Below, one piece after another: positions 1,672 to 45,800 of a stretch of 64,000 nucleotides of DNA. The notes beneath the pieces were generated by a model that was not told the DNA's origin, made no database searches, and worked only from the letters and a program-made list of their open reading frames with translations. The first letter of the stretch is position 1; each line of letters begins with the position of its first letter. The stretch spans positions 166,718,001-166,782,000 of the forward strand of contig OZ024741.1 in assembly GCA_964016885.1 (NCBI GenBank). The letters are read 5' to 3'. This stretch comes from Eledone cirrhosa. Taxonomy: Eukaryota. Made by a program: the position numbers and the translations under genes.

Positions 1672-2280
1672 ATGGTGGCTGCCAACTCGTTTTCGAGTAC
1701 GGCCACTACTTTATATCCATGTAGGAGAACCCCTACCTATGCGCTGAACGAGTGTGACTTTTTAGTCCAGCCAGCGACTTGAAAACTCTGGTACAAACAC
1801 TACACTTGTGACAATTATTGACACATAGTGCTGGGCCCATGGTACCATGTGATGACAAGTGCAGAGAGATCTCCAGATATAAAGCAATGCCTGTGCCGTG
1901 AAGCTTTTATAGTGAGCAAAGGCACTGCACAAAGCCAGTCCCACTCTCTTAACCAAGATGATATTTACCAAAAAGAAGAACAAGTCAACATCATTGGATA
2001 CGATCAGAGTTGCAGGTATTATATCAGAGTTTTCCTTCTACTAGAATTCTGCCTTGACAAAGGCTAAGGGGTCATCTTTCCCGGTGATTTTGGATGGCCA
2101 TTGACTCTTAAGAGCTCCTTTGCCCTTTGACAGGTTTTGGTTTTAGTCCTGCAGGATGTCCAAAGTCACCCTCCTCACCAAGAAACCTTGGTGGGGTTGC
2201 CAGTTTAGTCGCCAACGATCCGACCATGAGACAGGTTGTACTGGGATACATGTTACCAGTAGCACCAACTGGTGACCTGA
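1672..2280 (+). mobile_element. Degenerate Penelope-like element 3' fragment
   Basis: Peptide CLCREAFIV...HSLNQDD resembles the PLE GIY-YIG C-terminus; flanked by (TACA)n. Confidence 0.4.
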
Positions 2281-2356
2281 CATACATACATACATACATA
2301 TATACATACATACATACATACATACATACATACATACATACATACATACATACATA

Positions 2357-3182
2357 GTTGTGCATGGATACTTGAGACGTAAAACACAGACCATAGAGGG
2401 GATAAACCACTCAAAAAGCCTGGCATGGAGTTCCGACAAGTTTATGACATCACACCTTGAGGGATATCTCTATGCAATACAGGAACAAGAACTCCCTACC
2501 AAATATCTGCTGCACAAAAGGGGAGGGCCATCAGCTGACAATAAATGTAGGCTATGTAAAACAAAGATCGAGGATGTAAGCCACATTGTCGCTAGCTGCG
2601 AAAGAATGTCATCTCGCTACTACCTCCCCATGAGACACGATGGGATAGCTAGAACCATCTGGAACGCACTTCGGAAAACAAAATTAACATCAAACGAGGA
2701 AGAATATATTGAGACAGATGGCACTAAGGAATACTGGTGGAACCTGAAAATAAAAACTGCCACCAAATTAAAGCACAACCGGCCTGATATTGTTGTTTGG
2801 GACCACACATTGAAAACGTGTTCTGTTGTGGAGATCAGCTGCCCACTTGTTGTAAACGTTGTCAAAAAAATACAGGAGAAGGAGGACATCTACGGACCAT
2901 TGATGAGGAGTTTACAAATCCAGTATCCAAGATAACCTTTAGCTTCATACCCATCATTATTGGAGCTACGGGTTATATACCAACCCGCTTGGACCAAAGT
3001 ATCACTGAACTTGGATTTGCGGACAAAGAACGCAGCTCCCTATTTCATAGTCTACAAATGGCTGCGATAGCTGGCACCTTCAAAATTTGCAAAACATTCT
3101 TGCGATTTCTCTTCTTTTACAACCTTGCCACCAGGAAGGTGGCCGGTCAAAAAAATATACTCGAAATTAAGAGAAAGAGATA
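2357..3182 (+). mobile_element. 5'-truncated RLE-type non-LTR retrotransposon (R4/Dong-like), copy 1
   Basis: AIQEQ, CCHC knuckle CRLC..EDVSHIVASC, RHD, HNRPDIVVWD..VVEISCP (PD-(D/E)xK nuclease), IPIIIGATG..KICKTFL; one frameshift; flanked by (TACA)n. Confidence 0.85.
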
Positions 3183-3207
3183 ACATACATTCATACATAC
3201 ATACATA

Positions 3208-4034
3208 CATGATTCACAAAAGAGATAGGGATGCAGGCAAAACACCTAGATGTGACAACATATGCATACTCTGCAGAATTAACATCGAAGATGTCACCCA
3301 TGTCATCAGCAGCTGTCCAAAGATGTCATCGCGGTACTATCTACCTATGAGGCATGATGTAGTGGCCAAAACACTATAGAATGCATTCCGTAGAAAAGAT
3401 AGCCCCGATAATAAACACATTAAAATCTACAGCAATATGGAAGACATACATATACATAATATGAAAGAGTACTGGTGGAATTTTCCAGTAAAAACCCAAA
3501 TAAAATGCAAGCATAACAGACCAGATATAATAATATGGGACAGGGGAAAGAAGGCATGCACAGTAATGGAAGTTAGCGGCCCAGTAGATGCCAATATAAT
3601 ATTAAGGATTAGCGAAAAGGAGAATATCTATGCAGAACTAATGAGAAATCTGCAGATACTCCACCCTGATTATACCTTCAAATTTATTAGGGTACTGGGA
3701 TATGTTAGTAACTGCCTCAATACAAATCTTGAGAAGCTAGGCTTCAAAGAAACAGAAAGAACACGACTAGTTACGAAATTACAAGTACAGTAAAAATATG
3801 GAAAAAATTCCAAAAATTTTGCATCTAATAACTGCATATACACAGTTAAAGATACAAAGCATATACACATGCACACATACAACTCAACACATACACATCC
3901 ACACATAAAATAACATCCATACCTGCACACACATGCATGCATACATATCTATGTAGTTGATGTGTTAAATTCCAATGAGAGTCTGGTATATATGTTAGAA
4001 ACCGACTGTTTCTCGATTGGCAAACATTTGTGAA
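3208..4034 (+). mobile_element. 5'-truncated RLE-type non-LTR retrotransposon (R4/Dong-like), copy 2
   Basis: CILC..EDVTHVISSC, YYLPMRHD, EYWWN, HNRPDIIIWD; in-frame stop; flanked by (TACA)n. Confidence 0.85.
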
Positions 4035-11830: not shown

Positions 11831-12782
11831 ACCATACATACAAATGTGTTTATACTTTTTAAAGAATGAATGAACTAAGTCAAACTCGTCGGACGAATAA
11901 AGAATCTCCGGACGCCGCACATCATAAAAACAAATCTCTCCGCCGGACGCTAAATAAACAAAATCAGAAATATTCGTGTAAAACTAACTTCTGCTTATAT
12001 TATTAACCATTAACGAAATATCGAAAAGGTATGGCACGTAAATATTTATTATTTCAAATGTTTAAGTGTTATTTAAATAGCTTTGTATCTATATAATTTT
12101 TGTTATTATACGTTTCATTATGTTTTTATCCACCTGAAAGTTGTTACGACTTCCAGCTTTCTCCAACGATTCCGGAAAATGTAAAGTATTTCAACTAATG
12201 TATGGAATACGAGCTAGTCCCAGCATGTATGGAAACAATGGGACCGCGAAGCATGAAATGAAATTGAAGGGGACACGGGAGATCCCTGAATTATTTCATA
12301 CATACACGCAGCTAGAAGGTTGGGTGAAATATTCTATGTATAGATGATCTATATACTGGATTCTCCATCTTATTCTCTGTGTTTTTAATATTTTGTTAAT
12401 AATTCTTTTGCAGAATTATAATCTCCTACGTTTAAAACATATAATTCAGGAAAAAGAATCGGATTTAAAAAAAAAAAGTTTAAAATCGGATTTAAAAAGT
12501 TATGTAATGTATTATTTTATTTTGAATCATTTTTTGTTTTTGTGTGTTTAAAACATTAATCTGAAGAAATAAAAAAAAAATCAGTTTCTATTTGTATTAA
12601 TTACAAAATACACTACAAAATCCTTTCATTTTCCGTCATTTCACTTTCATTTTCGATGTACCACCAAAGAAAGATTATTAAAATACCCAATAATAAAGTT
12701 TTCATTAAAATCTTTCTTATCTTATTTAACGTTACAATATTTGCTTAGATCAGTGAAGTATTGGTTGTTTATCTCCACCAAA

Positions 12783-12964
12783 ATGGCAGTAAAAGAGGCC
12801 CCTTTTGGAAAGAGGTCAGTCTTAAAAAGGCCGTCCGTAAGATATGATGACATGGAAGGACCTTCCAAAATTGACATGGAAAGACGTTCTATATCGTCCA
12901 CTGTGGCTGATGACTTAGAAAGAAACGACACGAATAAACAGGTTATTGTCAACCTTCAATATTG
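12783..12964 (+). CDS. MIEN1: MIEN1-like selenoprotein coding exon 1 (M1 to Y60 plus TG of C61)
   Basis: ATG in AAAATGG context. Ends ...GTTATTGTCAACCTTCAATATTG|GTAAAT donor. VIVNLQYC fits the first beta strand of the Rdx fold. Start codon uncertain (M1, M24 or M32, or an upstream exon). Confidence 0.8.
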
Positions 12965-15900
12965 GTAAATATAATTATATATTTCTTTATAACTTTCTGG
13001 GTAACTTGTTATAATGTCTTTTTCATTAACTTACCTCGGGTTTATATATTGCCTGTAAAAAGATTTTAAAAATTCAGTCACATTTAGTGGATTAATTAAT
13101 ATTGCCTATCGAGATCTTTTTATCGATTTCCTAAATTAGAATGTCTACACTTGTATAAAGGTAAGATAGCAGTTTTAGGGCGTCTTGTGTTATTGTTATT
13201 GTATATATGAATGAATCCAGTATATACGTTTGTCGCTTTAACGACGTATCCAGTGATGTTCGCGAGGGTTATTTAGGTGCCTTAGCCTCGCTATCACATG
13301 CGGTAATAACTGGCGCCGTTACCCGTAGTGCAGAAGAGAGGAAGTTAGCTAATGACCGAGACGTGAACGACCGTTTCCCTTTCAGGTCGGTTACCATCGA
13401 GACCTTGGGTTTCCTCGGTCCCCAAACTGCCGTTGTCCTTTGCAAGATCAGGAGGAACACATCCCGCCTGCGGAATGAGCCCTGTGAGTTTGAGTGGCTG
13501 ATGCAGCTAGTTTCGCTGGTTATTTTCCCGATAGGTGAATGAAAGTAGTACAGCATCCGGTATTATTATAGGAAGACACCCCCACTTGTTTTTTCGTGTG
13601 CTTACCAACTAATCTTACCTCCGAACATGCTGCAAAGGACTTTTCCCATGGAGAGCGGCATCTCGGACTTTACCCCATAAACCCAACCCCCGGGGAGGGG
13701 TGCGTGAAAAGAAAACTCCGGGAGGTGGAAGGTCTAAGGACCTTGCCCCTTCATTTTCCGGGGAAAAACGTCCTTTGCAGCATTTTCGGAGGTAAGATAG
13801 CACACGAAAAAAAAACGAGATAATGAAATGGTAAAAAAAACTCGGTGTATGTATGTGAGGAGAGTTCGAGCGTTCCTATCCCTCTACCCCATCTTTTTTA
13901 CAGGGTAAAACATCCTTAGGACTATATTAAAAGGTAAGTTTATTTGATAATACCGAAGAAAAAAATTATTTCCCATTGAAATTGGTGGAGGTGTCTTTCT
14001 ATAAATTTACACAACACCTATCCTACAGCTCTGGCCTGGCTCCTTGTTACTGCTTCCTGTTCCCACATACGAAAGACAGCCTCACAGGAATCAGATTCAA
14101 GTCAACACAGGAGCTAAAGGAGAATTCCCTAATGGGACTGCAGAAAAAGGACTGGGAGGGTCTTCCATGAGTGGGGAACATTATTTTGAAGGGCAGTGGA
14201 TTGGCAGTATCGGTAGAGGGTCGGACGCCATGCTTTGCAGCAAAGAGTTACGACCCTTTGTGGTCTGAGTTCAAATCCTGCCGAGGTTAACTTTGCCTTT
14301 CATCCTTACGGGGTCGATAAAATAAAGTACCAGTAATACACTGAGATAATTTTGGCCTTGTGCCAAAAGTAGGAACAATTATTTTGAAGGAGATAAAGTT
14401 TTGTAAGGTTATGAAAATAAATAATGTTTCTCCTGAAATTTTCTCATTACTTATTGAACATATCTTTTCCACACTTTCATGGGTTGGACAAGTCCTCAAC
14501 ACAACCTCCCTCCACAATTTTCCTTTGTCATCTCCTCTATGAGGTTGTTTATATTTTGAGATCAGCTTTAACCACCTCTGCCCAGGTTTTTCACATCTTC
14601 TACTACAGCTTCTTTACATTGGCCTTACCTGGCACTTCTTCACCCAGTGTTTCTCATCAATTTGCATAACATGTCCAAACAAGCACATATTTCATATTTT
14701 AAAAAGGCTTTATTTATTAACTTCACTGAGAGTAATTTCTGTTATCAACAAAATAAAGTGCGTAGCTTGGAGATCAGAGTGTCACTTTAGATAGAACCGC
14801 TTCTTCTCCGAATTGAGAGATCACAGCTCTGATACTATGGTCATGTGGTTAGAATGTCTCAGGAAAGAATTGCTGGACAGACTTTATGGGCAAAACCAAC
14901 CCACAGCAGACTGAGGGGTAGACCCCCAAGTAAGATGCTTGGATAACATCCATGAGTTTGGCTGGTCACTCTTTGGGATCCAGCTGGACCAGATGGAGAC
15001 GATTACTTCTGACAGGACCGACTGGAAGGAGTTTTTGAGGACTCTACCCCCACAACAAGAAGAAGAGACCTGAACATACTTTGTGCATTCTATCTTGTCA
15101 GTTGGTGTGCCAGCATTGAGGGGAATCAGCTTATATACTTAGAGGTTTGCTTAAGGACTTTCCCATACCTCCCACTGTTTTTGCTGGGAAGTGAACTCAG
15201 AATACACAATGCTGAAACAATGCAAGGAATTTCCTCCATTGTTGGACTGCTATTTTATTTTGTCCACTTCAAAAGGATAAAAAGCAAAGTTGACCATGAT
15301 AAGATTTGAACTCAGAGCACAGAGCTAGATCAAATACCGCAAAACATTTAATCCAACACTTTAATGACTAATTAAGTCATCAACATCTCTGATTTTCATC
15401 TATTTTCCATGGGTTAGAACAGATTGCCACATTATGAAGCTAGCCCGCATCTTGCTTATACATTCTATGTTGCAGTTTTTATAGCTGGATGCCTTTCCTA
15501 ATGCAAACCACTTCATAGGATATACTAAGTGTTTTATTGTGGCACTGCCACTACCACCTGGTAGGGGGGACTGGGTGCTTTTATCTTGGCACCGGCACAA
15601 CCATTTTGCAGAGTAGGCTGGGTGCATTTATCATGGCACCAGTACTACTATTTTACAGTGCGGTCTGGGTGCATTTTATTGTGGCACCAGCAGTACCATT
15701 TTCAACATTTAAGTGCTTGTTGTGTCCTCATCTAGGCCGGAGGGGCAGTGATAGAGTTGAGGAACAAGAGCATGGGACTACATGTTGCTGATGGGTGGGT
15801 TAGAGGGAAAGGTGGCCTTAAGAGTGACAATTCAAATTAATCTATTTATAATCTCGCTTATGTGTTGACTATTGTATGAACCTCTCTGAAAAATATGTAA

Positions 15901-18257
15901 AAGTTAAAACTAAAATGAATGCTTGAAAACAATGTTCTTTGAAAATAGAAATACAAAGAAATATAAAAGAGAACTGAAGTAAAAAACATTAAATGATAAT
16001 TATTTTTTTCATCAGGCTAAATTCCAGAAAAGGATATATATATATTAGTCTTCTGTACAATTTCCATCTCAAATACTGATAATATTTAATAAGAGAATAT
16101 CAAATCACATGTTTGTGATTATTGTTAAGGTAGTAAGAGTCCTTTTGTTGTTATATTTCTAATGAAATACACTCTATTCAGTTAATTAATGAAGAATTTG
16201 GAGGGGTTTACTAAAATTATAAATTATTTCTATAAATGTGGTTCTGATATAAAATTATATTGGAAGATTTTAATTTAAATAAGAATCCTTTAAACTGGGT
16301 GCTTTAGTTCAGTTTGGTATGAAAAAGGCTAACATCCTGTAATGATTTAGCAGAAAATATCTAAAAACTGGTTGGTTAACTTAGATGTTTAATAGTGTCT
16401 TTACTAATAGACAGATTGCTGTGAAAATTTGCAGTTATAGTGCTGTTTTGTACTTTTCAAGTATGCCTGGGTATTGCGGTTTCATGTTGTATGGGATTTC
16501 AAGGGTTAAGATATACATTTGGATTGCACCTACTTGTAGGCCTTTCACCCTTTTGATACCAACCTGCCCCAAACCACCCCAAATCTATGACAACTTTTGT
16601 TTTAAAGTATTCCTATTTGAATAAAATCTTATAGAAGAATATTTTTGTTAAGCTATGTACTAAATGTCAGCTTAATAATGTTTAGATCAGAGGTGTGCAA
16701 CATATTCCATTGGTGGGCCACTTTTTGAATATTGGAACAAAGGCCTTATCTTACATAATATCTCACATAATATTGAATCTATGAGATTTTGATATTATTT
16801 ATTTTGAGAACAATACCTTAAAGTCAGTATGAGGGGCCGGTTGGGATCAGTTTGAGCAGAAAAAGTTGAGAGAATTCTGGCCGGATATGGCCGGTTTAAA
16901 TGCTAAAGGGTTAATATTTATTAAGCATTATTCCAAAGATTCACCACAACTTCTATCCATAACAAGGAACCGAGAAATTATAACACACATAACCCTATCA
17001 GTGAAGTATAGGTCAACTAACAAAAAATTGTATTATGGTTACGAAAAAATTCTAAATAAGCCTACAAGGTAAAAATTAAAAACGGTCATCGTGGGCTGCT
17101 CTGACTGGTCTGGCAAGCCGGATTGTGGCCCATGGGCTGCCTGTTGCACACCCCTGGTTTAGATAGTTTACTAAATCCTTTCAAATTGTTGATTATTGAC
17201 AAAATTAATTAAAAAGCAGGTGGTGTATTTCATTAGAAATATGGCAACGAAAGGGTTCATCATTATCTTCTTTCCCACTTTGATTAACATGTCTCAGATT
17301 ATCCCCCTCCCCAGCCTCTTGTAATCCTTCTGAGATAGTATATGATTTTGTCTCATAGTGACACCTGAAGTAGTTGGAAACGTATGGAATCACTTCGTAT
17401 AGCCATCTACAGAGAGTTTCCTGAAGTCACCGTAGTAGACATAATTAACAAGAGACGTGGTAAGATCATTTTTTTTGTACATTGCCTCATACATTATTCT
17501 TACAGAGCATTGGTTGACTAAAAGGGTAATAGAGAGTATTATGTAAATAACTGTAGTATACTAAGTATTCTGTACATACCAATCTTTAGTATAACAGATT
17601 GCACATAAAGTTTAGTGTAGAGTTTAGAAAGAGAAACAATTGTGATGGTTAAAAGCATACTAGTTAGGACAGGGTGGCACAGCATAGTTTTGTATCAAAG
17701 GCTAATGAAATAAAACTACTTTCATGGTACAATATAGGATTCTATAGAATATTTCAACCACCAAGAACTTCAATAGAAATAGAACTATTAAATGAACTAT
17801 AATATATTATATAAAAGTATGTCATGCTGTGGAAGGGGGTTGGTAAGAGTGTTTGTGAAAAATATCAATTTAAAGTATAAATGCATAAAATATTTCATTT
17901 TGGTAGCTTCATTCATTAAACTTATTTTGTTGTGTAATATATATATAATCAAGTACTGTATATATTATTTGTGAGTATATTAGATTTATTTGATTTAACA
18001 AACAATGTACTAAGCTGAATTTTTGGCTTTTGAAGCGCTGAGAAGATATATATGTATATATATATATATATATATCTTCTCAGCGCGTCAAAAGATATGA
18101 ATTTCGATGTTAAATCGTATTCATACCCATTCAGGGTTCCTAATTAAACCCTTTACTTTCCTCTGAGCTTCTGAGGAGCCCAACTTGAGCGTAACATGTG
18201 TAAAAGCTCCTTATAAATATATTTTAGTGGTCTGCTTCTCTTTCTTCAATTTCTTCG

Positions 18258-18295
<38 letters not shown>

Positions 18296-21200
18296 GCTCA
18301 AGTGCAGAAATGCTATAAAGATACCTTATAAAATAGGGTGAACAACCAACCTTAAAAGATGGAAAAAGAAGTTGCAGCTGGCCACTATGTGGAAACGAAT
18401 CCCCATATCTTCCATATACTGGCTCGATGCTTTAACCATTATGCTAAGGAGCCTTGACAAATCCCTTCCTGTCATTTTAACTAGATAACTGGACAACTTT
18501 CAGATGTCAGCAAGCAGGCAGACAGACATCCACATCTAAACAAACAACATACAAAGCTGAATTTTTGGCATTTGACATGCTGAGAATATATGTATATATA
18601 TATATAAGTATAAAGAGTGTGTTCAAGTGTAGAAAGGCTATAAAGATAGCTTATAAAATAGGGTGAAGACCCTTAAAAGACAGAAAAAGAAGTTGCCACG
18701 GCCACTATGTATTATATATCTATCTATGCAATTAATTATATATTATTTGTGTGTATATATAGCTTATAAATAAAACATTTAAAATGTCATATTGTTCTTT
18801 GATATTTGGTGGTTGTTTCTGATTAAACTGGGGAATTTCCACAGGGTCACTAGTTATAATTATAGCTCGTATTTTGTGGTATTTGTATTTATGAGTAGGT
18901 TTTTTTTAGTCAAAATATTTAATAAAATTTAATTTATTCATATATTTATTTATCTTTGTCAGAAGCATGACTGTTTCCATAATTTTATTGCCTAATTTTG
19001 TTTTTGTATTGACCTATAACTCCATCATGAATCATAAGGGGTCCATTGTGACATATGGCCTATATTAGGCACTTTAAACTTGGCAGAGCCCATCATCTCT
19101 CCAGGTTTGAGCCCAACTGATTTCTTCCAGAGAATGAGAAAGTAAGAGGAAGAATCCACCCCAGTACTGGACTGGTATTTTCTTTTTTTATTGACCTCAA
19201 ATAGATGAAAGACAAAGTTGGTTTTGGTAGGATTTAAACTCAGAGAAGGCAGAGATGAAACGATTACTGCATACCATTCTATCTGATGTTCTAACGACTC
19301 TATCAATTCGCCATCGGATGACATGCTGTGTGGCATGTAGTTATGGCCCTTTACATTCTGAGTTCAAATCCTGCCTTTCATCCTTATGGGGTTGATTAAA
19401 TGAAGTACCAGTAATGCACTGGGGTCGATTTAATTGATTTTACCCTCCCCTAAAATTGTTGGCCTTGTGCCTAAATCAGAAACAATTATTTAAGAAATAC
19501 TCTTAATTCAAAGCTAACATTTTAAATTGTATCCTCTCAATTTTTAGGTGCCTTTGAAGTTAGCATTAATGGCAAGTTGGTTTTCTCTCGTCTTCAGTCT
19601 CGTATGTACCCTGAGTCTGAAATGGTCAGTATTTTCCATTTGATTAACCGTTTGTTTTTTTGTTTTCCTCATCATCATCATCATTTTAGGTCCACTTTTC
19701 CCTGCTTGCAAGGATGGGACGGGAACTGATTCTGGCTTGATTTCTACAGCTGGATGCCCTTCCTAACACCAACCTCATTTACAGTGAGTGCTGGGTGGTT
19801 TTTTGCCATGGCACCTCCACGACCACTTTGCAGTGGAATGATATGGACCCCAGTCCCTATCATCTCATTTCTACAGCTGAGTAAACTGGAGCAATGTGAA
19901 ATAAAGTGTCTTGCTCAAGGAAACAACACATCACTCGGTCTGAGAATTGAACTCACAACCTTTCGATTGCAAGGCCAATGCTCTAACCACTAAGCCATGT
20001 GCCTCCATAAACATGTAATCCCAAAAGAACAATGAAGGTATCTCATAATATGGTACTTTGTATCTCTGTTTCTTTATTATGTCTATCATTTTTTTATGAC
20101 ATTGTAATAGTGTTTGAATTGTTAAGAACAAATATACTTCTGCCACCAACTACAAACAAGATGTCTTGTCCATATTTACATCTCAGAGTTGCCACACTTT
20201 ATGTTGGCACTTTAACAGGTAGATCTGGTGAGATAGCAGAGATGCTGGAGAGAAGGCATGGATGTGTGCTGTGTGCAAGAGGTGAGATGGAGAGGTGCCT
20301 CTGCAAGACTAATCGCAAGCAAACATCGTAGTTATAAGCTTTTCTGGGTGGGTAATGATGATGGGTTAGGTGGGGTGGGCATATTACTGGTTGAGAGATG
20401 GATCAATAAGACAATAGAGGTGTTAGTGTTAGTAATAGAATAATTAAGCTTAGGTTAGTTGTAGGCAAGAGACTACTGACAATCATTTCTGCCTATACTC
20501 CCCAGGCAGGCCAAAGTAAAGAAGAGAGACTGCTTTTACGAGCAACTTTTACAGACAGCCTCAATGACAGAGACATCGTTATGCTAGCAGGGGACTTCAA
20601 TGGACATGTTGGACAGCTCCAGGATGGATACACTAGGATACATGGTAGGCACAGTTACGGCTCAAGAAATGAAGAATGGGTGAGGCTTCTTGAATTTTGT
20701 GATGCAAATGCACTAACCATTTGCAACACTAACTTCCAGAAGCCTACCAACCACCTAATAACCTACAAATCAGGCGAGCACATAAGCCAGATTGACTTCC
20801 TGCTAGTTAGACAGCGGGACAGACAGATGGTGTCAAATAATAAGGCATACCCTGGGGAAGAATGTACCCCACAGCATAGGTTAGTCATTAGTGACATCTC
20901 AGTAAGCAAGACAAAGAATGAGACATACAGGAAGGTGTGGAAAAGAAAGGTCTGGAAGTTAAAAGACCTTTCATTAAAATATAAATTTAGCAAAGCCCTT
21001 CAAGATGTGTACGATGAAAAAGAAGACGATTTAGAGTTGAATGACATAGATGATAACTGGAATTTCTTACATGACAACTTACTGCAGGCTAATGAAGAAA
21101 CTTGTGGTTGGGGCAGAGCTTCAACCAGACAGAGAGTGACCTGGTGATGGAACAGCACGGTAGATAGGGCCATTAGAGACAACAGACTGGCATGGAAAGC

Positions 21201-23699
21201 TTAGAAAATGGTGGGAGTAGAGAAGGATACACAGCCGCTAAGAGAGAAGCTAGACGTCAGGTGTACTTAGCACGCAGGGAGGCTGAGAGTAGGAGGTTTG
21301 CCAATGTTCTGCAATGGGAAGATCAGAGACGTGTGGTGGTCCGCATTGCAAGGCAGTGTGTCAGTGCAAATCAGGATGTTGTTGGAGATAAATGTTTCCG
21401 GAACGATGCTGGTGTACTTAGTGTCACGAACGATCAAAAAAAGGAGGCCTGGAAATGTCATTATGAGAGACTGATGAATGTAGAGAATGATGGGACAGAG
21501 AGGAATTACCCCCAGTAGACCTGACAGAGGGACCAGATATTGAGATTGATGAATATAGGGTACAAGAGGCAATTAAGGAGATGAAGAACGGTAAGGCTGC
21601 TGGACCGTCGGGGATAGTTGTTGAGATGCTGAAGGCATCAGGAGAAGTAGGCACTAAACTAGTTGCACACATCATTAATCAAGCTATATATGGTGGTGTC
21701 ATACCCAAAGACTGGTGCTGCAGTATTCTCATAAATTGCTACAAAGGTAAAGGGGATGCTCTAGAGAGGAGCAATGATAGGGGTATAAAGCTGATGGATC
21801 AGGTTATGAAAGTGGCAGAGAGAATATTAGCGCAACTGATTAAAGAAAGGGTAAAATTAGATGAGATGCAGTTTGGTTTTGTGCCTGGGAAAAGTACAAC
21901 AGATGCCCTCTTCTTAGTGAGGCAACTACAAGAGAGGTTCTTAGAGAAGAATAAGCCACTATACTTAGCTTTTGTTGACCTAGAGAAGGCCTTTGATAGG
22001 GTACCCCGATCTGTCATCTGGTGGTCCCTAAGGAAACTAGGTGTAGAGGAATGGCTTGTGAGGACAGTGCAAGCTATGTACAGGGGTGCTGTCAGTAAAG
22101 TGAGAATAGGAATGGAGTTTAGTGAGGAATTCCAGATAAAAGTAGGTGTACATCAGGGTTCGGTCCTCAGCCCGCTCTTGTTCATTATAGTCCTCCAAGC
22201 CATAACAGAGGAGTTTAAGACTGGATGCCCATGGGAATTTCTCTATGCTGATGATCTGGTTCTTATAGCAGAATCAGTAGCGGAGCTAGAGAATAAATTC
22301 TGGCTATGGAAACAGCAGTTGGAATCAAGAGGCCTGAGAGTGAACATAGCTAAAACAAAAGTGTTGATAAGTAGAAGAGAGGACAATACGCTGATTCCTT
22401 CAAGGAAATGGCCATGTTCGATATGTAGAAAAGGAACTGGCATAAATTCCATAAAATGTACGCAATGCAGATCTTGGGTACACAAGAGATCTAACAGGTA
22501 GGGAAAACTATGTATGCAGTAGATGTACAGGGAAGTTGGCAGTAGTAATCGCAGTGATAGACACATTTTTCCAATGCAGGTGGGTTCTATAGAAGTTGTT
22601 GATAGCTTCCGGTACCTAGGTGATCAGATTAGCATGGGAGGGGGTTGTTCTTAGGCCATGGTATCTAGAATAAGGATGGGTTGGAAGAAGTTTAGGGAGC
22701 TGCTTCTTCTGTTGACAAAGAAGGGTTTCTCTCTGCGTACGAAAGGACGGTTATATGATGCCTGTGTGAGATGAGCGATGCTGCATGGTAGTGAGACATG
22801 GGCAGCAACTACAGAAGATATGTGACGGCTGGAGAGAAATGAAGCAAGTATGCTCCGTTGGATGTGCAATGTCAATGTGCGTGAACGACAAAGCATAGAC
22901 GAGTTGAGAAAGAAACTGGGTATAAGAGGGATAAGTTGTGGTGTGCAGGAGAGAAGGCTGAGATGGTATGGACATGTGATGCGCATGGAGGATGACTGCT
23001 GGATAAAGAAGTGCCAAGAAATCCCAGTAGAAGGAAGACGCAGTAGAGGTAGACCACGAAAAACATGGGTGGAGGTATGAGAGCAGACCTCAGATCGCTG
23101 AAACTCACCGAGGAGATGACGAAGGACCGTGACAAGTGGAGAGATGCTGTGTTGAATAGGACCCGTCCAACCCTTGCAAACAGGGAAAAGCGGACGTAAA
23201 ATGATGATGAATTTTATCAACCCTTGAAGGATGAAAGGTAAGTTGACCTTGGTAGGAATTGAACTCAGAGTATAAAGAGCAGAAAAATGTCACAAAGCAA
23301 TATTAGTAATTAGACATAAATAGATAACCATAGTTTGACAGACAGACAAACAGATATATGTTGTTGGTTTTATTGTCTGAAGATCTAGGTAGATAGCTAC
23401 TGCTTGATCACTGATAATTTTATCAACTCTCTGATAGAGGAAGGGAGAAAGATATCAAATTCCCATAAATCTGTCATTTGACTGTTGTGTTTTATTATAC
23501 CGATATTCTGCATTTTTGTAATTCTGTCAGAAAGAACTCAATATTTCCTCAATGAATAACTTTTTGATTATTCTATATTAGTATTTAATTCTTTTCTTTT
23601 TTACAGATATTGAGTTTAATACGTGATGTCATGGCAGACAAACCAATCACCGCTCTTGAGGAAACTGAGACAAGCTGCTCGAAGTGCATTGCTTTATAA
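12783..23699 (+). CDS. MIEN1: Spliced 4-exon CDS of a MIEN1/Rdx12 (SelW2)-like selenoprotein, 150 aa, Sec at residue 64: join(12783..12964,17359..17459,19548..19624,23607..23699)
   Basis: All three introns are GT-AG and phases match (2,1,0); 182+101+77+93=453 nt. Translation: MAVKEAPFGKRSVLKRPSVRYDDMEGPSKIDMERRSISSTVADDLERNDTNKQVIVNLQYCDTUSSWKRMESLRIAIYREFPEVTVVDIINKRRGAFEVSINGKLVFSRLQSRMYPESEMILSLIRDVMADKPITALEETETSCSKCIAL*. Shows Rdx CxxU, GAFEVSINGKLVFSRL (human MIEN1 recalled as GAFEIEINGQLVFSKL) and a terminal CaaX (human CVIL). Confidence 0.9.
13250..13560 (+). mobile_element. CRE-like non-LTR retrotransposon 3' fragment (intron 1)
   Basis: AEERK..F.SVTIETLGFLG...WLMQLVSLVI resembles the CRE endonuclease C-terminus. 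Confidence 0.6.
13990..14190 (+). mobile_element. Mariner transposase C-terminal remnant
   Basis: HLSYSSGLAPCYCFLFPHTK..GIRFKS resembles HPPYSPDLAP.D..LF..LK..G.RF.S. Confidence 0.7.
14196..14381 (+). mobile_element. SINE inserted in the mariner remnant
   Basis: Family consensus; ATTATTTTGAAGG duplicated on both sides. Confidence 0.85.
14700..15065 (+). mobile_element. Degenerate RTE-type LINE 3' fragment
   Basis: QL*YYGHVVRM..R..GRP-like RT tail motifs. Confidence 0.5.
16688..17156. mobile_element. hAT (Charlie-like) MITE in intron 1
   Basis: TIRs CAGAGGTGTGCAAC and GTTGCACACCCCTG; 8-bp TSD GTTTAGAT. Confidence 0.85.
17359..17459 (+). CDS. MIEN1: MIEN1-like selenoprotein coding exon 2 with in-frame Sec TGA (17366-17368)
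   Basis: Acceptor ttttgtctcatag|T GAC ACC TGA AGT...; reading stays open after the TGA (SSWKRMESLRIAIYREFPEVTVVDIINKRR); donor G|GTAAGA. Confidence 0.9.
19140..19490. mobile_element. Two opposed SINE copies just upstream of exon 3
   Basis: Minus-strand older copy (19140-19315) and plus-strand copy (19315-19490). Confidence 0.7.
19548..19624 (+). CDS. MIEN1: MIEN1-like selenoprotein coding exon 3 (GAFEVSINGKLVFSRLQSRMYPESEM)
   Basis: Branch-point-like GCTAAC at about 19513, pyrimidine tract, ttttag| acceptor, ATG|GTCAGT donor. Carries the Rdx signature GxFE(I/V)xxNGxLxFS. Confidence 0.92.
20161..23208 (+). mobile_element. Near full-length decayed RTE-clade LINE (APE + RT) in intron 3, sense orientation
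   Basis: LRVATLYVGTLTGR, DVCCVQEVRW, AGDFNGHVG, SQIDFLL (APE). GKAAGPSG, QFGFVPG, AFVDLEKAFDRV, GVHQGSVLSPLLF, LYADDL (RT). Cys-rich CSICRKG..C..C..WVHK, RLRWYGHVMRM, (GAT)n tail. Multiple stops and frameshifts. Confidence 0.95.
23607..23699 (+). CDS. MIEN1: MIEN1-like selenoprotein terminal coding exon (ILSLIRDVMADKPITALEETETSCSKCIAL*)
   Basis: Strong acceptor ttcttttcttttttacag|, phase 0 matches exon 3, ends in CaaX CIAL then TAA (23697-23699). Confidence 0.88.
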   Translation: MLSLIRDVMADKPITALEETETSCSKCIAL

Positions 23700-24359
23700 A
23701 ACTAATTTGTCTATATAACACTGCTGCAATTATGTTAAAGCGTATACTCTCTGAGATTAAATTTTCTTCTTTCTTTCTAAGTTAATATATATTAAAGGCC
23801 TTGACTATCATATTTCTTTTCTATATCCTCATAACACAAATACCCAGGCTTATTGACTGGTTTATATTCCAGGATTATGTTCCATTGTAAAACCTGTCTT
23901 GTCTCAGTGAACACATCTACCCAGCATGTCTTGTTACTCTTACATATTACACACATATATTTCCACAATCAACAATAACAACAGTTAATCTCATTGAATG
24001 AGTTAAACTTATTGATTGGAGTTAGATCTTGTGATGTTTACTTCATTATGTATATTTAGGTAGCAGCTACTGCTACAAGCACAGGCTAATGATAAGAAAG
24101 GTGTTGTGATTGTATTAAAACATGTGTGTTGAATAAATGGTCATCCTTAATTCCATGTGACTTACAAATATGAGTGTTTATACTCGAACTTGGGAAAAAA
24201 TCATTCAAGTTCTTGCATGCATCATAGATGTGTTGTATTTATTATGTTGCTTCTTCACTAATTGAATAATAGACATTCATTATATTTTTTTGTTTCTATT
24301 TATTTCTATAATCATCTTGTCCCTTCTTTTCTCTGCTTCTGTTGTCTTTTTTTTCTCTA

Positions 24360-27300
24360 TCCTGGCTCCAATATTTTCCATGTCCATGTTTCTTTTTCTC
24401 TGATCCAATATTGTCCTTAGTCAAGTTTCTTTCTCCCTAATCCAATACTGTCCTTAGTCAATTTCTCTCTCCCTGTTCCAATATTTCCCATGTCCATGTC
24501 TCTCTCTCCCTGATCCAATACTTTCCTTAGTCAATTTTCTCTCTCCCTGATCCAATACTGTCCTTAGTCAAGTTTCTCTCTCCCTAATCCAATACTGTCC
24601 TTAGTCAGGTTTCCCTCTCCCTGATCCAATACTTTCCATGTCCATGTTTCCTTCTACTTGATCCAATACTTTACATGCCCAAATCTCTCTCTCCCTGATC
24701 CAATACTTTCCTTAGTCATGTTTCTCTCTCCTTGATCCAATACTGTCCTTAATCAAGTTTCTCTCTCCTTGATCCAATACTTTCCTTAGTCAATTTCTCT
24801 CTCCCTGATCCAATATTTTCCATGTCCATATCTCTCTCTCCCTGATCCAATACTGTCCTTAGTCAAGTTTCTCTCTCCCTGATCCAATACTGTCCTTAGT
24901 CAAGTAACTCTCTCCCTGATCCAATATTTTCCATGTCCATGTCTCTCTCTCCCTGATCCAATACTGTCCTTAGTCAAGTTTCTCTCTCCCTGATCCAATA
25001 TTTTCCATGTCCATGTCTCTCTCTCCCTGATCCAATACTGTCCTTAGTCAAGTTTCTCTCTCACTGATCCAATACTGTCCTTAGTCATGTTTCTCTCTCA
25101 CTGATCCAATACTGTCCTTAATCAAGTTTCTCTCTCACTGATCCAATACTGTCCTTAGTCATGTCTCTCTCTCCCTGATCCAATACTGTCCTTAGTCATG
25201 TTTCTCTCTCACTGATCCAATACTGTCCTTAGTCATGTTTCTCTCTCACTGATCCAATACTGTCCTTAGTCATGTTTCTCTCTCACTGATCCAATACTGT
25301 CCTTAGTCATGTTTCTCTCTCACTGATCCAATACTGTCCTTAGTCATGTCTCTCTCTCACTGATCCAATACTGTCCTTAGTCATGTTTCTCTCTCACTGA
25401 TCCAATACTGTCCTTAGTCATGTTTCTCTCTCACTGATCCAATACTGTCCTTAGTCATGTTTCTCTCTCACTGATCCAATACTGTCCTTAGTCATGTCTC
25501 TCTCTCACTGATCCAATACTGTCCTTAGTCATGTTTCTCTCTCACTGATCCAATACTGTCCTTAGTCATGTTTCTCTCTCACTGATCCAATACTGTCCTT
25601 AGTCATGTTTCTCTTTCCCTGATCCAATACTGTCCTTAGTCAAGTTTCTCTCTCCCTAATCCAATACTGTCCTTAGTCAGGTTTCCCTCTCCCTGATCCA
25701 ATACTTTCCATGTCCATGTTTCCTTCTACTTGATCCAATACTTTACATGTCCAAATCTCTCTCTCCCTGATCCAATACTTTCCTTAGTCATGTTTCTCTC
25801 TCCTTGATCCAATACTGTCCTTAATCAAGTTTCTCTCTCCTTGATCCAATACTTTCCTTAGTCAATTTCTCTCTCCCTGATCCAATATTTTCCATGTCCA
25901 TATCTCTCTCTCCCTGATCCAATACTGTCCTTAGTCAAGTTTCTCTCTCCCTGATCCAATACTGTCCTTAGTCAAGTTTCTCTCTCCCTGATCCAATATT
26001 TTCCATGTCCATGTCTCTCTCTCCCTGATCCAATACTGTCCTTAGTCAAGTTTCTCTCTCCCTGATCCAATATTTTCCATGTCCATGTCTCTCTCTCCCT
26101 GATCCAATACTGTCCTTAGTCAAGTTTCTCTCTCACTGATCCAATACTGTCCTTAGTCATGTTTCTCTCTCACTGATCCAATACTGTCCTTAATCAAGTT
26201 TCTCTCTCACTGATCCAATACTGTCCTTAGTCATGTCTCTCTCTCCCTGATCCAATACTGTCCTTAGTCATGTTTCTCTCTCACTGATCCAATACTGTCC
26301 TTAGTCATGTTTCTCTCTCACTGATCCAATACTGTCCTTAGTCATGTTTCTCTCTCACTGATCCAATACTGTCCTTAGTCATGTTTCTCTCTCACTGATC
26401 CAATACTGTCCTTAGTCATGTCTCTCTCTCACTGATCCAATACTGTCCTTAGTCATGTTTCTCTCTCACTGATCCAATACTGTCCTTAGTCATGTTTCTC
26501 TCTCACTGATCCAATACTGTCCTTAGTCATGTTTCTCTCTCACTGATCCAATACTGTCCTTAGTCATGTCTCTCTCTCACTGATCCAATACTGTCCTTAG
26601 TCATGTTTCTCTCTCACTGATCCAATACTGTCCTTAGTCATGTTTCTCTCTCACTGATCCAATACTGTCCTTAGTCATGTTTCTCTTTCCCTGATCCAAT
26701 ACTGTCCTTAGTCATGTTTCTCTCTCACTGATCCAATACTGTCCTTAGTCAAGTTTCTCTCTCCCTGATCCAATATTTTCCATGTCCATGTCTCTCTCTC
26801 CCTGATCCAATACTGTCCTTAGTCATGTTTCTCTCTCACTGATCCAATACTGTCCTTAGTCATGTCTCTCTCTCACTGATCCAATACTGTCCTTAGTCAT
26901 GTTTCTCTCTCACTGATCCAATACTGTCCTTAGTCAAGTTTCTCTCTGCCTGATCCAATACTGTCCTTAGTCATGTTTCTCTCTCACTGATCCAATACTG
27001 TCCTTAGTCATGTTTCTCTCTCACTGATCCAATACTGTCCTTAGTCATGTTTCTCTTTCCCTGATCCAATACTGTCCTTAGTCATGTTTCTCTCTCACTG
27101 ATCCAATACTGTCCTTAGTCAAGTTTCTCTCACTGATCCAATACTGTCCTTAGTCATGTTTCTCTCTCACTGATCCAATACTGTCCTTAGTCATGTTTCT
27201 CTTTCCCTGATCCAATACTGTCCTTAGTCATGTTTCTCTCTCACTGATCCAATACTGTCCTTAGTCAAGTTTCTCTCACTGATCCAATACTGTCCTTAGT

Positions 27301-27480
27301 CAAGTTTCTCTCACTGATCCAATACTGTCCTTAGTCAAGTTTCTCTCTCACTGATCCAATACTGTTCTTAGTCATGTTTCTCTTTCCCTGATCCAATACT
27401 GTCCTTAGTCATGTTTCTCTCTGCCTGATCCAATACTGTCCTTAGTCAAGTTTCTCTCTCCCTGATCCCATACTTTCCAT
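24360..27480. repeat. 37-bp minisatellite (CTGATCCAATACTGTCCTTAGTCATGTTTCTCTCTCA)n, about 84 units
   Basis: Period 37 (CTGATCC at 25212 and 25249). A block of variant units recurs about 1072 bp apart (24581 vs 25653). Confidence 0.95.
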
Positions 27481-27752
27481 GTCTGTGCTTTCCTTGGTCC
27501 TGTTTCCCTCACTCTATATTGTGTGTTCCAGCTGTCTTTTCTGTTATTTCTTCTTCAATATGATGGTGATGAATTTGTTTTGCAAGTTTTTTGGTATGGA
27601 ATCCTGGAATACTAAGGACAAAAAGTTGATAGTCAAGGCTGAACTCTAAATTATTGATAATTGTTTTTTCAAATTTTGTGTTTAACTTTTGTTAAACAAA
27701 AAATATTTTTTATTGTGTAATTTTAAACTTTTCACTTGGATTTCTTACTGAT

Positions 27753-27818
27753 TATTTCTGCCTATGAAAATACTGGTCTAAACCTCAATCGACCAGAGTT
27801 GGATAAATTTGAGAAATA
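27753..27818 (+). promoter_or_regulatory. SECIS element (type I) in the putative 3' UTR of the MIEN1-like gene
   Basis: Helix I TATTTCT(27753-59)/AGAAATA(27812-18). Core ATGAA(27764-68)/GGAT(27801-04). Helix II AATACTGGTC/GACCAGAGTT (9 of 10 paired). Apical AAA (27780-82) lies 12 nt after ATGA. Same strand as, and downstream of, the TGA-containing gene. Confidence 0.85.
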
Positions 27819-27856
27819 GCCAGTGAAAAACTCAACTGAAAATTATTTGTTTGGAG

Positions 27857-27862
27857 ATTAAA
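27857..27862 (+). terminator. Candidate polyadenylation signal (ATTAAA) just after the SECIS
   Basis: ATTAAA followed by a TG/T-rich tract. AATAAA hexamers also occur near 28836 and 28863. The region is AT-rich, so this is weak evidence. Confidence 0.3.
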
Positions 27863-28289
27863 TTAAAAAAAATTATAATGTGTCTGTATTTATTTTTTCT
27901 GAAATGTATTTTTGACAATTTTTTTTACCAACATGTTGCCCTTGCTATACTCCAAGACTCCAAGGTAACACTTTATTCTCTCTGTTGGGACATTGTGGAA
28001 GCACACACCTGGAGTTCTGCATCCTGGAAAAGCAGAGCGGACGAACTGTAGGGCATGTCAGCCTTTCATCAACTTGTTCATGCTGTTACTGTTGACCACT
28101 ACATACAAACATACATGTGTACATATGACACTATGAAGCTAAATTTTTCATGTAGAAAGTGTATGTACAAACATCAGTTAAATTGCAAAACTAATTGTTC
28201 AGATTTTGTTTACATTATGTATAAAATGTTCAATATTGGGACAAGTAGAGTGGGTGTGCAAATTTAGACAGTTGTATGCATACAGATCA

Positions 28290-38149: not shown

Positions 38150-38940
38150 GTACCAAAGAGTTTAAGGGAAGTCACCTCAAGAACATAGAGGTGATTCTCT
38201 ATGACCACTTCGTAATAAAATGTAATTCAATTGTATATTTCCATTTCAATGCCATCATAGTTTTGTTTTTATTAACGTTGCTCAGTGTCTGATACGTCTT
38301 AAATGCTGTCAGATCTAGTCGAGAAAGTGGAGGATTGCAATTTGAGATTCTTCTCTGGATTCTTCTCATTTTCTTTTCCACTCTTGATTTTTGCTAAAAG
38401 ATTTCATTTGCGATAGATTTGCGATGTAGTCTATATCTATTATTTCCCTTTGTACACCTTCCTTCGCTAATTCATCAGCTTCCCTATTTCCTCTAATATC
38501 TGTATAGCCTGGTATCCAAATCAATGTTATTTGTTTATTATTTTCTGAGAGATAGTTATCTATTCTTATCAGAGTACTCTCAATATCTCTAACCTGACCC
38601 ATTTTTCTTGATTGAAACAGTTCTAGGTTCGATAAACTATCAGTAAATAGGAAACCATTTTCCCAGGACATTTCTTTAGTTGAATCTATGGATGATATAA
38701 TTCCCCACCACTGTACGTCAAATATTATGAAATCACGATGTAATCTGAAGCTCATAACTCTATTATTATTTTTTAAAGGCCAAGTAGCTCCACACCCTAC
38801 TCCTTTGTCTGTGTGTACCCCATCTGTGTAACTGACCCAGTCGTTAAAACTGATTGATTGTGTGATAATGTTATGGAATTCTTTTGATTCCACTTTTAAG
38901 TTTTCAACCGTAATTTTAAACGATTTTAATTGTTCTACGA
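38150..38940 (-). mobile_element. RNase H domain fragment of a non-LTR retrotransposon (I/R1-like group)
   Basis: YTDG..GVGCG, FTDSLS, LIWIPGY.DIRGNREADELAK. Confidence 0.8.
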
Positions 38941-38955
38941 ATGGAGGACACACAC

Positions 38956-39054
<99 letters not shown>

Positions 39055-39139
39055 TATATATATATATTTATACACAGACACATGTATATATATGTATTAA
39101 TATATATATATGTATCTATATATACATACATGCATAAAA

Positions 39140-42832: not shown

Positions 42833-45800
42833 CTAGCAGTTTAGCCCGGCGTTGCTCGGGTTTATTCATTTGCTATGAAAAGTTACATACAGGTAAACGT
42901 GGCTTGAAAGCGAATAAGCTTATCAATTAAGTGCATAAAGCAGTTGAACCGGTTATTAAAAGTTACGAACGAATTACCATTTTGGACAATCAATGATGGG
43001 TTAATAATCTTCCAATAGCGAATTTAGCAGACCAAAGTTGCAAGATGGTGGCTCTGATGCCGCTGGGTGTCAGATCTGTCCGCCATGGGTGACCCTACCA
43101 GGAAATAGTTTTCCAGACGGCATAGCTCCAACACCGCCAACACCTGCACCAACATCTATAGCACCTCTTTGTAGACGATATTGCGTGTCATCCCTTGAGG
43201 AGTGTAAGCAAAAAGTCCATTCCTGCTCCCTACGCGGGAACAGGCAACATAAAGTTGACCATGGGAGAAGCATGGCTCCCATAAATGGATGCCCGCCACC
43301 GACAATGTTTGCACTTGTGACTTGTTAATGGACATAGCAAAACATGGTCTCATCGGGAATTGGGATCGCCGGAAATCGAACGGGATATCTGATGCCGAGC
43401 GGAAAAGGTTCATCCTTGGAATGAAAACATTCTCCCCTCTCCCGCACACCGTTACAATGGTGGCCTCAATAGAGTGGGGCGTCAGTAACTTGACGACCAT
43501 GCGAGTACAGTTGCACTGTTTGGTGGACGCAAGTTCCTTATTAGCATAATGAGACAGCCAACCCTAAGCTTAAGAATGTGAAGTGGGAGCCCTGGTGGCT
43601 CAAGGGAATTTAATAACTCAACCGGATAATTAACGATATCGTCGGGGTCTGACGTCCGGTCGATAGATTTGAAGATGTGCTCTTTACCGGGAATTTTCTC
43701 AATCAGCTGCTCGTTAATAAAATTAACCATGGTATTTTTCGGAGCAAGGATGGCTTTAAAGTTAGATGAGATATTAGGAAAAACTGCCTCCCAAAGGTCA
43801 GAAGGGCTGCTCACAATGTTGCACAGGGAGTCGATTGCTATGCCGCCCTTGTCATCCGCAGGGACCTTGCCCTCATCAAGTGCTAAAATGTTCTGAGCAA
43901 ATGCTGCAGAGATGTTGTCACCATGCAAATGGGCACGCATATTTGTGCTCAGGTACAAACTCTTCACCTGGGGCCACAACGTGGACGACTTAAGGCAGGC
44001 ACGCACTTCATCAGCTCTTGTCCCTTTGGGGATGACAGGCAGCGTTTGCCGAAAATCCCCTGATAGCAGAAGGGTTACGCCACTCATAGGAGCCGTAGAA
44101 TCCCTAATGTCTTTCAGGGTCCAGTCCAATGCCTCATTGGCACCCTTGTGTCCCATTGTGCACTAATCCCAAACAATGAGGCAACATTTTTTGAGAACCA
44201 GAGCTTCGTGTGAGCTCTTGCTGATATTGCATGTTGGTGTCTCAGTTTTTACTAAATCCAAGGGGAGTTTAAAGGTTGAATGTGCTGTCCTGCCTCTCAG
44301 CAGCAAAGTAGCAGCGATCCCGGACGATGCAACGGCCAACGCAATTTTTTTCTCCTGACGAATCTTAGCGGGAATCAATTGTGTTACAAAAGTTTTTCCG
44401 GTACCCCCAGGAGCATCGAGAAAGTATATACCCCCAGTCTGTTTTTGAACCGCGTCAATGATAGTTAAATAGGCCAACCTTTGATCCGACAGACGTTTGG
44501 GCTCATTTTCCTCTAAGTATTGGGAAAGAGATTCGATGTCATATGCTGTTTCCCGCAACAAATCTCGATATCAATGAGTGCCCTGTTGTAGATAATGCCG
44601 CTGTAAGCAACTTCCACTGAAGGATACTGCAGATCAGCCAGCCGGAGGAAATCCTCAGACATGAAGTCTCTGTACTTGATCCATAAAGATTTGGGATCAC
44701 CCAATTCACACTTTTGAAGCAAAATGGCAAAGAGTTCCCGTAGACCTTTAGGTGATTTCAACAAAGTGAAATCCCATTGCGAATCATCTTCCAAAAGACC
44801 ACGCTTAAAGCAGGCTTCTCGGTACGTATCACATATTTCTCCATCAACAGTTTTGATGTCCTGAAAACTTTGTGGGCCTACAACTTCATGCAGGAGAAGG
44901 CGGAGATGAAAGCACTCATACTGACTTGGGGGCACAGTGTAAACCCTTCCAAGACAGCTGTCAAATTTTACACCAGGATGACTTTCTTCGCACCCAAGTG
45001 TTTTTCGACCATATAAAGTCGGATGGAACTTGGGGGTACACAATTGTTTGCACAAATGTATCGAACAGGCAAAGTTTGAAGAAACCCGACTGAGTGGTCT
45101 CTTTCGGATCGGCGGCCAACTTGGCGGCGGTTTGGTCCGTAAAATAAACTCTTTGCCCATTTTCCAAATGTACCGCAAGCTGTACGATAGCGGGGTGCCG
45201 TTGGTGTAGGGGGAAACTAAATAGGCGCCAAAAAGCTTCATTGCTACTGATGTACCGCCCCGCCAGGTATTCTGTGACCTCATCAGAGTCCGTTTTTACA
45301 TATTTGCATATGTATTTTATTGACTTGACGGAGTTGCAAAACTCAACGTTGACGTGGGCGTTGAACATCTTCAAGAGAAGCGAGCAGTAAGAGACCACCC
45401 ATCTATTGTCGACTTGACCTCCCTTTACTGTTGTGGTGAAGCCACCGCTCTAGGGCCGTCTCCGCCTGTACAAGGGGTACCCATCGCCACCAGTCTGAGT
45501 CTCGTCAACAAATTTTTTTGGGTATCCCTTACTGCACGACCCCCCTTTCAGACACGTGTGATGCTCATTAGGACCCGACGCACACGGACCATGTTAGCTT
45601 TGACGATGTCATGTAATTCTTGGTCAGTTGCTGGGTTAGGGATTTCAGCCGAAATGAAGCTGTCTATGGCATTTGAACTGATTTTATCAGCTAACCAAAT
45701 CAAAATGTGAGCATGTGGCAGCCCTCGTTTTTGCCATTCGACGGTGAACATGTCACATTTTACAGCCCCAAATACCTGACCTTTTTATTAAAGCCATGAG

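Follow-up and report, generated by a model that had tools for sequence, protein, structure and literature searches.

A diverged SELENOW2/MIEN1 duplicate of Eledone cirrhosa, likely a genuine selenoprotein gene

The proteins of the SELENOW2/MIEN1 (Rdx12) group are the closest described systems for the gene considered here, which lies in a 64,000-nucleotide stretch of the Eledone cirrhosa genome (contig OZ024741.1, positions 166,718,001 to 166,782,000; the whole of this stretch is called the window, and coordinates below are positions in it, on the forward strand unless stated otherwise). The invertebrate members of this group sit on the SELENOW2 branch and carry selenocysteine (Sec), and MIEN1, with CxxC in amniotes, has been proposed to stem from a duplication of SELENOW2 in jawed vertebrates (PMC13134290). 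Sec-containing MIEN1 has been published for fish (PMC13134290; PMC3316567), for which lineage-specific duplications are also known (PMC3316567). Lottia possesses three SelW genes (PMC3473315), UxxU forms of SELENOW are found in amphioxus and Ostreococcus (PMC7539508), and human MIEN1 has a thioredoxin-like fold and a CaaX box, CVIL, for which geranylgeranylation is predicted (PMC3527542). The literature searched, where most subscription papers were out of reach, yielded no paper on a cephalopod SELENOW2 expansion.

By sequence similarity, the window gene is a member of this known group, and we consider it quite probable that an intact, diverged duplicate of animal SELENOW2/MIEN1 occupies the locus, a genuine selenoprotein gene whose UGA at codon 64 is read as Sec. 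With the SELENOW2 of invertebrates and fish (SelW2; PF10262/TIGR02174) it shares the CxxU motif, the Rdx core and a selenocysteine insertion sequence (SECIS), here a predicted one, in the 3' untranslated region (UTR). Unlike the known SELENOW2, it is one of four copies dispersed over one chromosome and only 33-48% identical after the Sec site, and the window copy has an N-terminal insertion of 41-47 amino acids (aa), U-S-S-W in place of U-G-Y, and a minisatellite in its UTR. Human MIEN1 (C17orf37, Rdx12; 2LJK) is the best PDB match both for exon 3 and for a database relative, P0121, and has a similar CaaX end; it differs in having CxxC where the window copy has CxxU, and vertebrate MIEN1-like proteins form a separate clade in our tree. 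The UxxU SELENOW of amphioxus and Ostreococcus is a precedent for one of the other copies, paralog A (outside the window, possibly U-S-A-U), the window copy itself being CxxU, not UxxU; unlike in those species, the first UGA of paralog A would arise solely through splicing, with C-A-U as the outcome of a tandem acceptor.

The window gene consists of four coding exons, with all introns GT..AG, which give 150 codons followed by TAA, the single internal stop being the TGA of codon 64 (17366..17368), the predicted Sec of the CxxU motif, with TGA at the same site in 3/3 paralogs. The first coding exon (12749..12964) begins behind a conserved acceptor AG (12747-12748) with 34 nt of UTR, has its ATG at 12783, and supplies 60 codons plus TG; its coding part (12783-12964) is 182 nt long versus 41-59 nt in the paralogs and holds the N-terminal insertion, which is private to the window copy in the comparison with the three paralogs. 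A 10-nt direct repeat within the insertion (12848-12881) suggests that it grew partly through local duplication. All four copies have an acceptor some 35 nt ahead of the ATG, so that an additional, non-coding exon probably precedes the first coding one; a shared exon of this kind was looked for among the paralogs, and none was located. Exon 2 (17359..17459), whose length of 101 nt is identical in all four copies, finishes the Cys codon that is split TG|T by intron 1, and the motif around the TGA reads Y-C-D-T-U, aligning with the paralog motifs and, via P0121, with C-E-P-C of 2LJK. Exon 3 (19548..19624, 77 nt) encodes the conserved Rdx core GAFEV..LVFSRL, and exon 4 (23607..23699, up to and including the TAA) ends in the CaaX box CIAL. 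The splice model thus bears out three proposals of a preliminary description of this DNA: four exons joined in phase into a 150-aa Rdx-family protein, a redox motif spanning intron 1 as Y-C-D-T-U with TG|T, and a reading that continues past the TGA to CIAL and, as found here, its TAA.

The family placement given in that description, MIEN1/Rdx12-like, is also right. Exon 3 alone matched Pfam Rdx with E 2.7e-4 and 21.5 bits, just below the cut-off of 22.6 (one of the four exons matched), and the exon 3 region scored 24.8 bits against Rdx PF10262, above that cut-off, in the genome search. Exon 3 reached 30.7 bits against TIGR02174 (cut-off 34.2) and E 0.007 against 2LJK, a similarity from which we infer a thioredoxin-like fold for the window protein. 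The spliced window model is 44% identical to P0121 over 89 aa; P0121, in turn, scores 54.5 bits against the Rdx profile and matches 2LJK with E 4e-11, versus 0.25 for mouse SelW. The two traits of the SELENOW2/MIEN1 subgroup, a CaaX tail and, for P0121, a greater nearness to MIEN1 than to SELENOW1, are both found here. The 3.0-Gb genome contains exon 3 once. No protein was matched in word-index searches, either by exon 1 or by exon 3 together with its intron flank; Rdx clusters in the ESM Atlas at 0.85-0.86 serve as a lead only; and a metagenome scan returned mostly bacterial-type Rdx genes, the 27 loci (of 80) that were translated including no close transcript.

A genome search with the SECIS region returned three further long matches of 74-78%, all on the same contig (C2), one of them adjoined by an Rdx profile match, and a search from the last exon of paralog B returned the identical four loci. 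All three paralogs have four coding exons of the same phases, the inner ones 101 and 77 nt long; the TGA occupies the same codon in each, and the SECIS cores are 941-1665 nt past the stops. Paralog B (C2:205089087-205098077), which spans 9 kb, is the conserved copy, with C-N-S-U-G-Y and a CTIL end. Paralog A (C2:74100277-74115061) has a CLIL end and an intact SECIS, and it may carry UxxU, the motif being U-S-A-U with the first acceptor and C-A-U with the AAG located 3 nt on; the second UGA would be created at the exon junction TG|A, by splicing alone. Paralog C (C2:160905872-160920317, C-Q-G-U) has kept the TGA and the SECIS, and an early stop in its last exon, with the old tail out of frame, has removed the CaaX anchor.

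Relatives of paralog B were obtained with a profile built from the four copies, and the match list is therefore biased towards them; the nearest are P0121 (77%) and P0017 (69%). P0121, P0017 and P0273, on contigs of 980-1316 nt, run contiguously across the junctions of paralog B and show W where Sec is expected; the first two must be spliced, as their contigs are about 1-1.3 kb long whereas paralog B spans 9 kb; the W is presumably a TGA rendered as Trp by gene callers. Among 45 CaaX-ending database matches (P0010 being excluded as a bacterial-type match), 14 have C at the position of codon 64, 15 have W, one has K and one S, and in a further 14 the position was not found. The annotation of P0185, a protein of Octopus vulgaris of 72 aa, starts only at the Met that follows the Sec site, which fits the earlier expectation that standard pipelines truncate such genes. 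In a tree of 42 rows and 101 columns, with no labelled SELENOW2 row among them, the four copies and four database relatives fall on one side of a branch (98/88), the backbone being unresolved; P0185 shares a branch (98/85) with the window copy and paralogs A and C, next to paralog B and its relatives.

The putative SECIS element of the window gene (27746..27825) has an AUGA core at 27764-27767, AAA at 27780-27782, the 3' GA at 27802-27803, and helices I and II. Rfam SECIS_1 places a match at 27756-27815 with 26.7 bits (E 0.6 when the whole window is searched, 0.0096 for a search of 1 kb). The 81-nt stretch folds at -18.8 kcal/mol (z -3.2; a single shuffle out of 200 did equally well), forming two helices and leaving the AUGA and GA core unpaired. 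This hairpin is also the sole match, on both strands of the 64-kb window, to a SECIS pattern of our own (AUGA, 11-12 nt, AA, GA, and both helices), a pattern that matched none of 300 resampled 1.9-kb sequences, an optimistic null as its thresholds were chosen knowing the element. When the four hairpins are aligned and scored on the RNAalifold structure, 97.8% of cells are paired, versus 30-42% in slid controls, and two of the 23 pairs show compensatory change. The earlier claim of a complete SECIS downstream on the same strand calls for a reservation as to its place: the element lies 4065 nt past the stop, beyond a 3.1-kb tandem array, and 4325 nt from the UGA.

As to whether a hairpin so remote is the gene's own, the proximal 3' UTR (23700..24160) is homologous to the paralog UTRs, at 70-86% in blocks, and together with the SECIS block it is collinear with the short UTR of paralog B, where the SECIS is found 941 nt past the stop; by this comparison, the hairpin is part of the window gene's UTR by descent. 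Two ATTAAA (27857..27867), the likely distal poly(A) signal, are found 93-98 nt past the SECIS core; paralogs A and B have theirs at +94 to +99, so that three of the four copies show an ATTAAA between +93 and +99. Going by this collinearity and by the conserved ATTAAA, the element may lie within the mature mRNA. The array itself is a 37-bp minisatellite of about 84 copies (24385..27478). Its 24-mer is restricted to this locus in the genome (57/57 exact matches), and the paralogs have CT-rich sequence at the corresponding place, which makes local amplification its likely origin. A 3' UTR intron that would remove the array was looked for as a donor-pattern match in 23700-24400, and none was found, patterns that a weak donor could escape. 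The array contains an internal 1072-bp higher-order duplication at 97.7%, which is either real or a feature of the assembly, and on the strand of the gene each 37-bp unit resembles a 3' splice site (a pyrimidine run, CTGAT, then TTAG), which places about 84 such units after exon 4.

The machinery for Sec insertion is encoded in the genome: two identical tRNA-Sec genes (anticodon TCA, 77.7 bits) are found 58 kb apart in opposite orientation (C23:15059770 and C23:15118228), and a SepSecS gene is present as six exons without stops. Recoding of the UGA as Sec, as originally proposed, is supported by this machinery and by the TGA, the exon phases and the SECIS found in 4/4 copies; for the window copy we infer it from these. 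In such a case, the mRNA would run through the 3.1-kb minisatellite to the ATTAAA past the SECIS, its 3' UTR measuring about 4.2 kb, and the SECIS would act over the 4325 nt that separate it from the UGA, Sec being inserted by SBP2/eEFSec; this distance is within the range of 207-5207 nt reported for mammals (PMC3316567). The product would be a small thioredoxin-like thiol/selenol oxidoreductase, prenylated on CIAL and held to membranes on their inner side, in the way that human MIEN1 is reported to be. The long branch of the window copy and its N-terminal insertion suggest that partners or tissue changed after the duplication. No new mechanism is required.

A number of observations weigh against this view. 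The 4/4 count of SECIS elements is partly built in, as the paralogs were found via SECIS similarity; the Rfam score of the window hairpin falls short of the gathering cut-off of 35; none of the three paralog hairpins is listed in Rfam at E<=0.5; SECIS identity (81-85%) is only modestly above that of the flanks (60-85%); and the covariation is not above shuffles (125/500), as expected with four rows. The usual G-Y after the motif has been lost in the window copy, whose splicing and expression are predicted from sequence; four read runs at the locus are DNA-like, with introns covered and no splice joints among those listed, and no RNA run was listed for a query with exon 4 and the UTR. After the UGA, dN/dS is 0.68-0.86 versus the paralogs, with bootstrap intervals that include 1, and purifying selection on the protein sequence is therefore not demonstrated; relaxed and positive selection both fit these values. 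Finally, the SECIS is preceded by an AATAAA (24132..24137, +433 from the stop), a possible early poly(A) signal, and exon 2 contains two weaker in-frame AG acceptors (17369..17373; +12 and +15), whose alternative exon starts, 17371 and 17374, would skip the TGA.

The last two features underlie an alternative that we regard as unlikely, in which the gene is expressed but the window copy mostly escapes Sec, either because its mRNA ends at the AATAAA or because a bypass acceptor is used. In the first version, the message would be without the SECIS, and the UGA, read as a stop, would be 168 nt upstream of the last junction; a stop this far before the last junction is a likely decay target. In the second, an acceptor 12-15 nt downstream would result in a one-cysteine, Sec-free protein. 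The displacement of the SECIS by 3.1 kb of repeat adds to the case for such an escape, as does the lack of an AATAAA at the homologous place in paralog B. However, paralogs B and C also have an AATAAA before the SECIS, which indicates that such hexamers are common in these AT-rich UTRs, the bypass acceptors are located behind the first AG and have weaker pyrimidine tracts (7/15 and 6/15 versus 10/15), and the hairpin of the window copy is intact.

It is also rather improbable, in our estimate, that selection on the window copy has been relaxed and that this duplicate is decaying, with no disabling mutation acquired so far. Besides dN/dS near 0.7-0.9, this alternative can draw on the long branch of the window copy (0.55 versus 0.035 for paralog B), on paralog C having already lost its C-terminal tail, and on the repeat expansion in the UTR along with the degenerate long interspersed nuclear element (LINE; 20410..22501) in intron 3, an element with endonuclease and reverse transcriptase frames that has no role in the mechanism. 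Against it, the TGA, the six splice dinucleotides and the SECIS core have been retained in all four copies at dS of about 0.5-0.7, and in a neutral simulation these features and an 86-codon open frame were all kept with a probability of 1e-4 to 3e-4 per lineage, a value that assumes decay starting at duplication and does not cover recent relaxation. The grouping of the O. vulgaris protein P0185 with the window copy (96/78, under the starred level) further suggests persistence across species.

A last alternative takes the TGA for an error of sequencing, a concern of the preliminary description, or for a Cys codon turned into a stop in this DNA alone. It is refuted in practice: all three paralogs carry the TGA at the same codon, and short-read contigs from three DNA-like runs of one sample span exon 2 with no difference at the TGA (the comparison covers the region up to 24380), ruling out an assembly error without being independent, as the sample may be the assembly's own.

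With the genuine selenoprotein gene as the preferred reading, the kind of selenoprotein is one already known from many animals, and what is added is a four-copy, fast-diverging, likely cephalopod expansion of it, with a possible spliced UxxU paralog. Work on the human relative of this selenoprotein, MIEN1, concerns cell migration and cancer. Annotation is also corrected, as such genes are cut at the UGA, which appears to be the case for the O. vulgaris relative, and the four copies present a natural series for the effects of Sec versus Cys, of the membrane anchor and of SECIS distance. A bolder proposal, possible but doubtful at present, is that octopods carry an undescribed, fast-diverging SELENOW2 expansion in which all copies would have Sec and would have split into a conserved CxxU-GY copy, a UxxU copy with TG|A across an intron that would be switchable to Cys by the tandem acceptor, an unanchored copy without CaaX, and the window copy, in which Sec insertion would be tuned by the minisatellite-lengthened 3' UTR, the early poly(A) site and the UGA-skipping acceptors.

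As to the remainder of the window, miRNA matches in the window scan were microsatellite artefacts, all under the cut-off. Further pieces of retroelements, with zf-RVT, RNase H and a PHD-like frame that resembles the LINE of intron 3, are located at 2276-3793, 38366-39067 and 50803-51615, and a (GTT)n array of about 974 units occupies 57134-60054. Broken PIF1-like helicase frames are found on the reverse strand at 43156-45449, and these we take to be, probably, a Helitron remnant.

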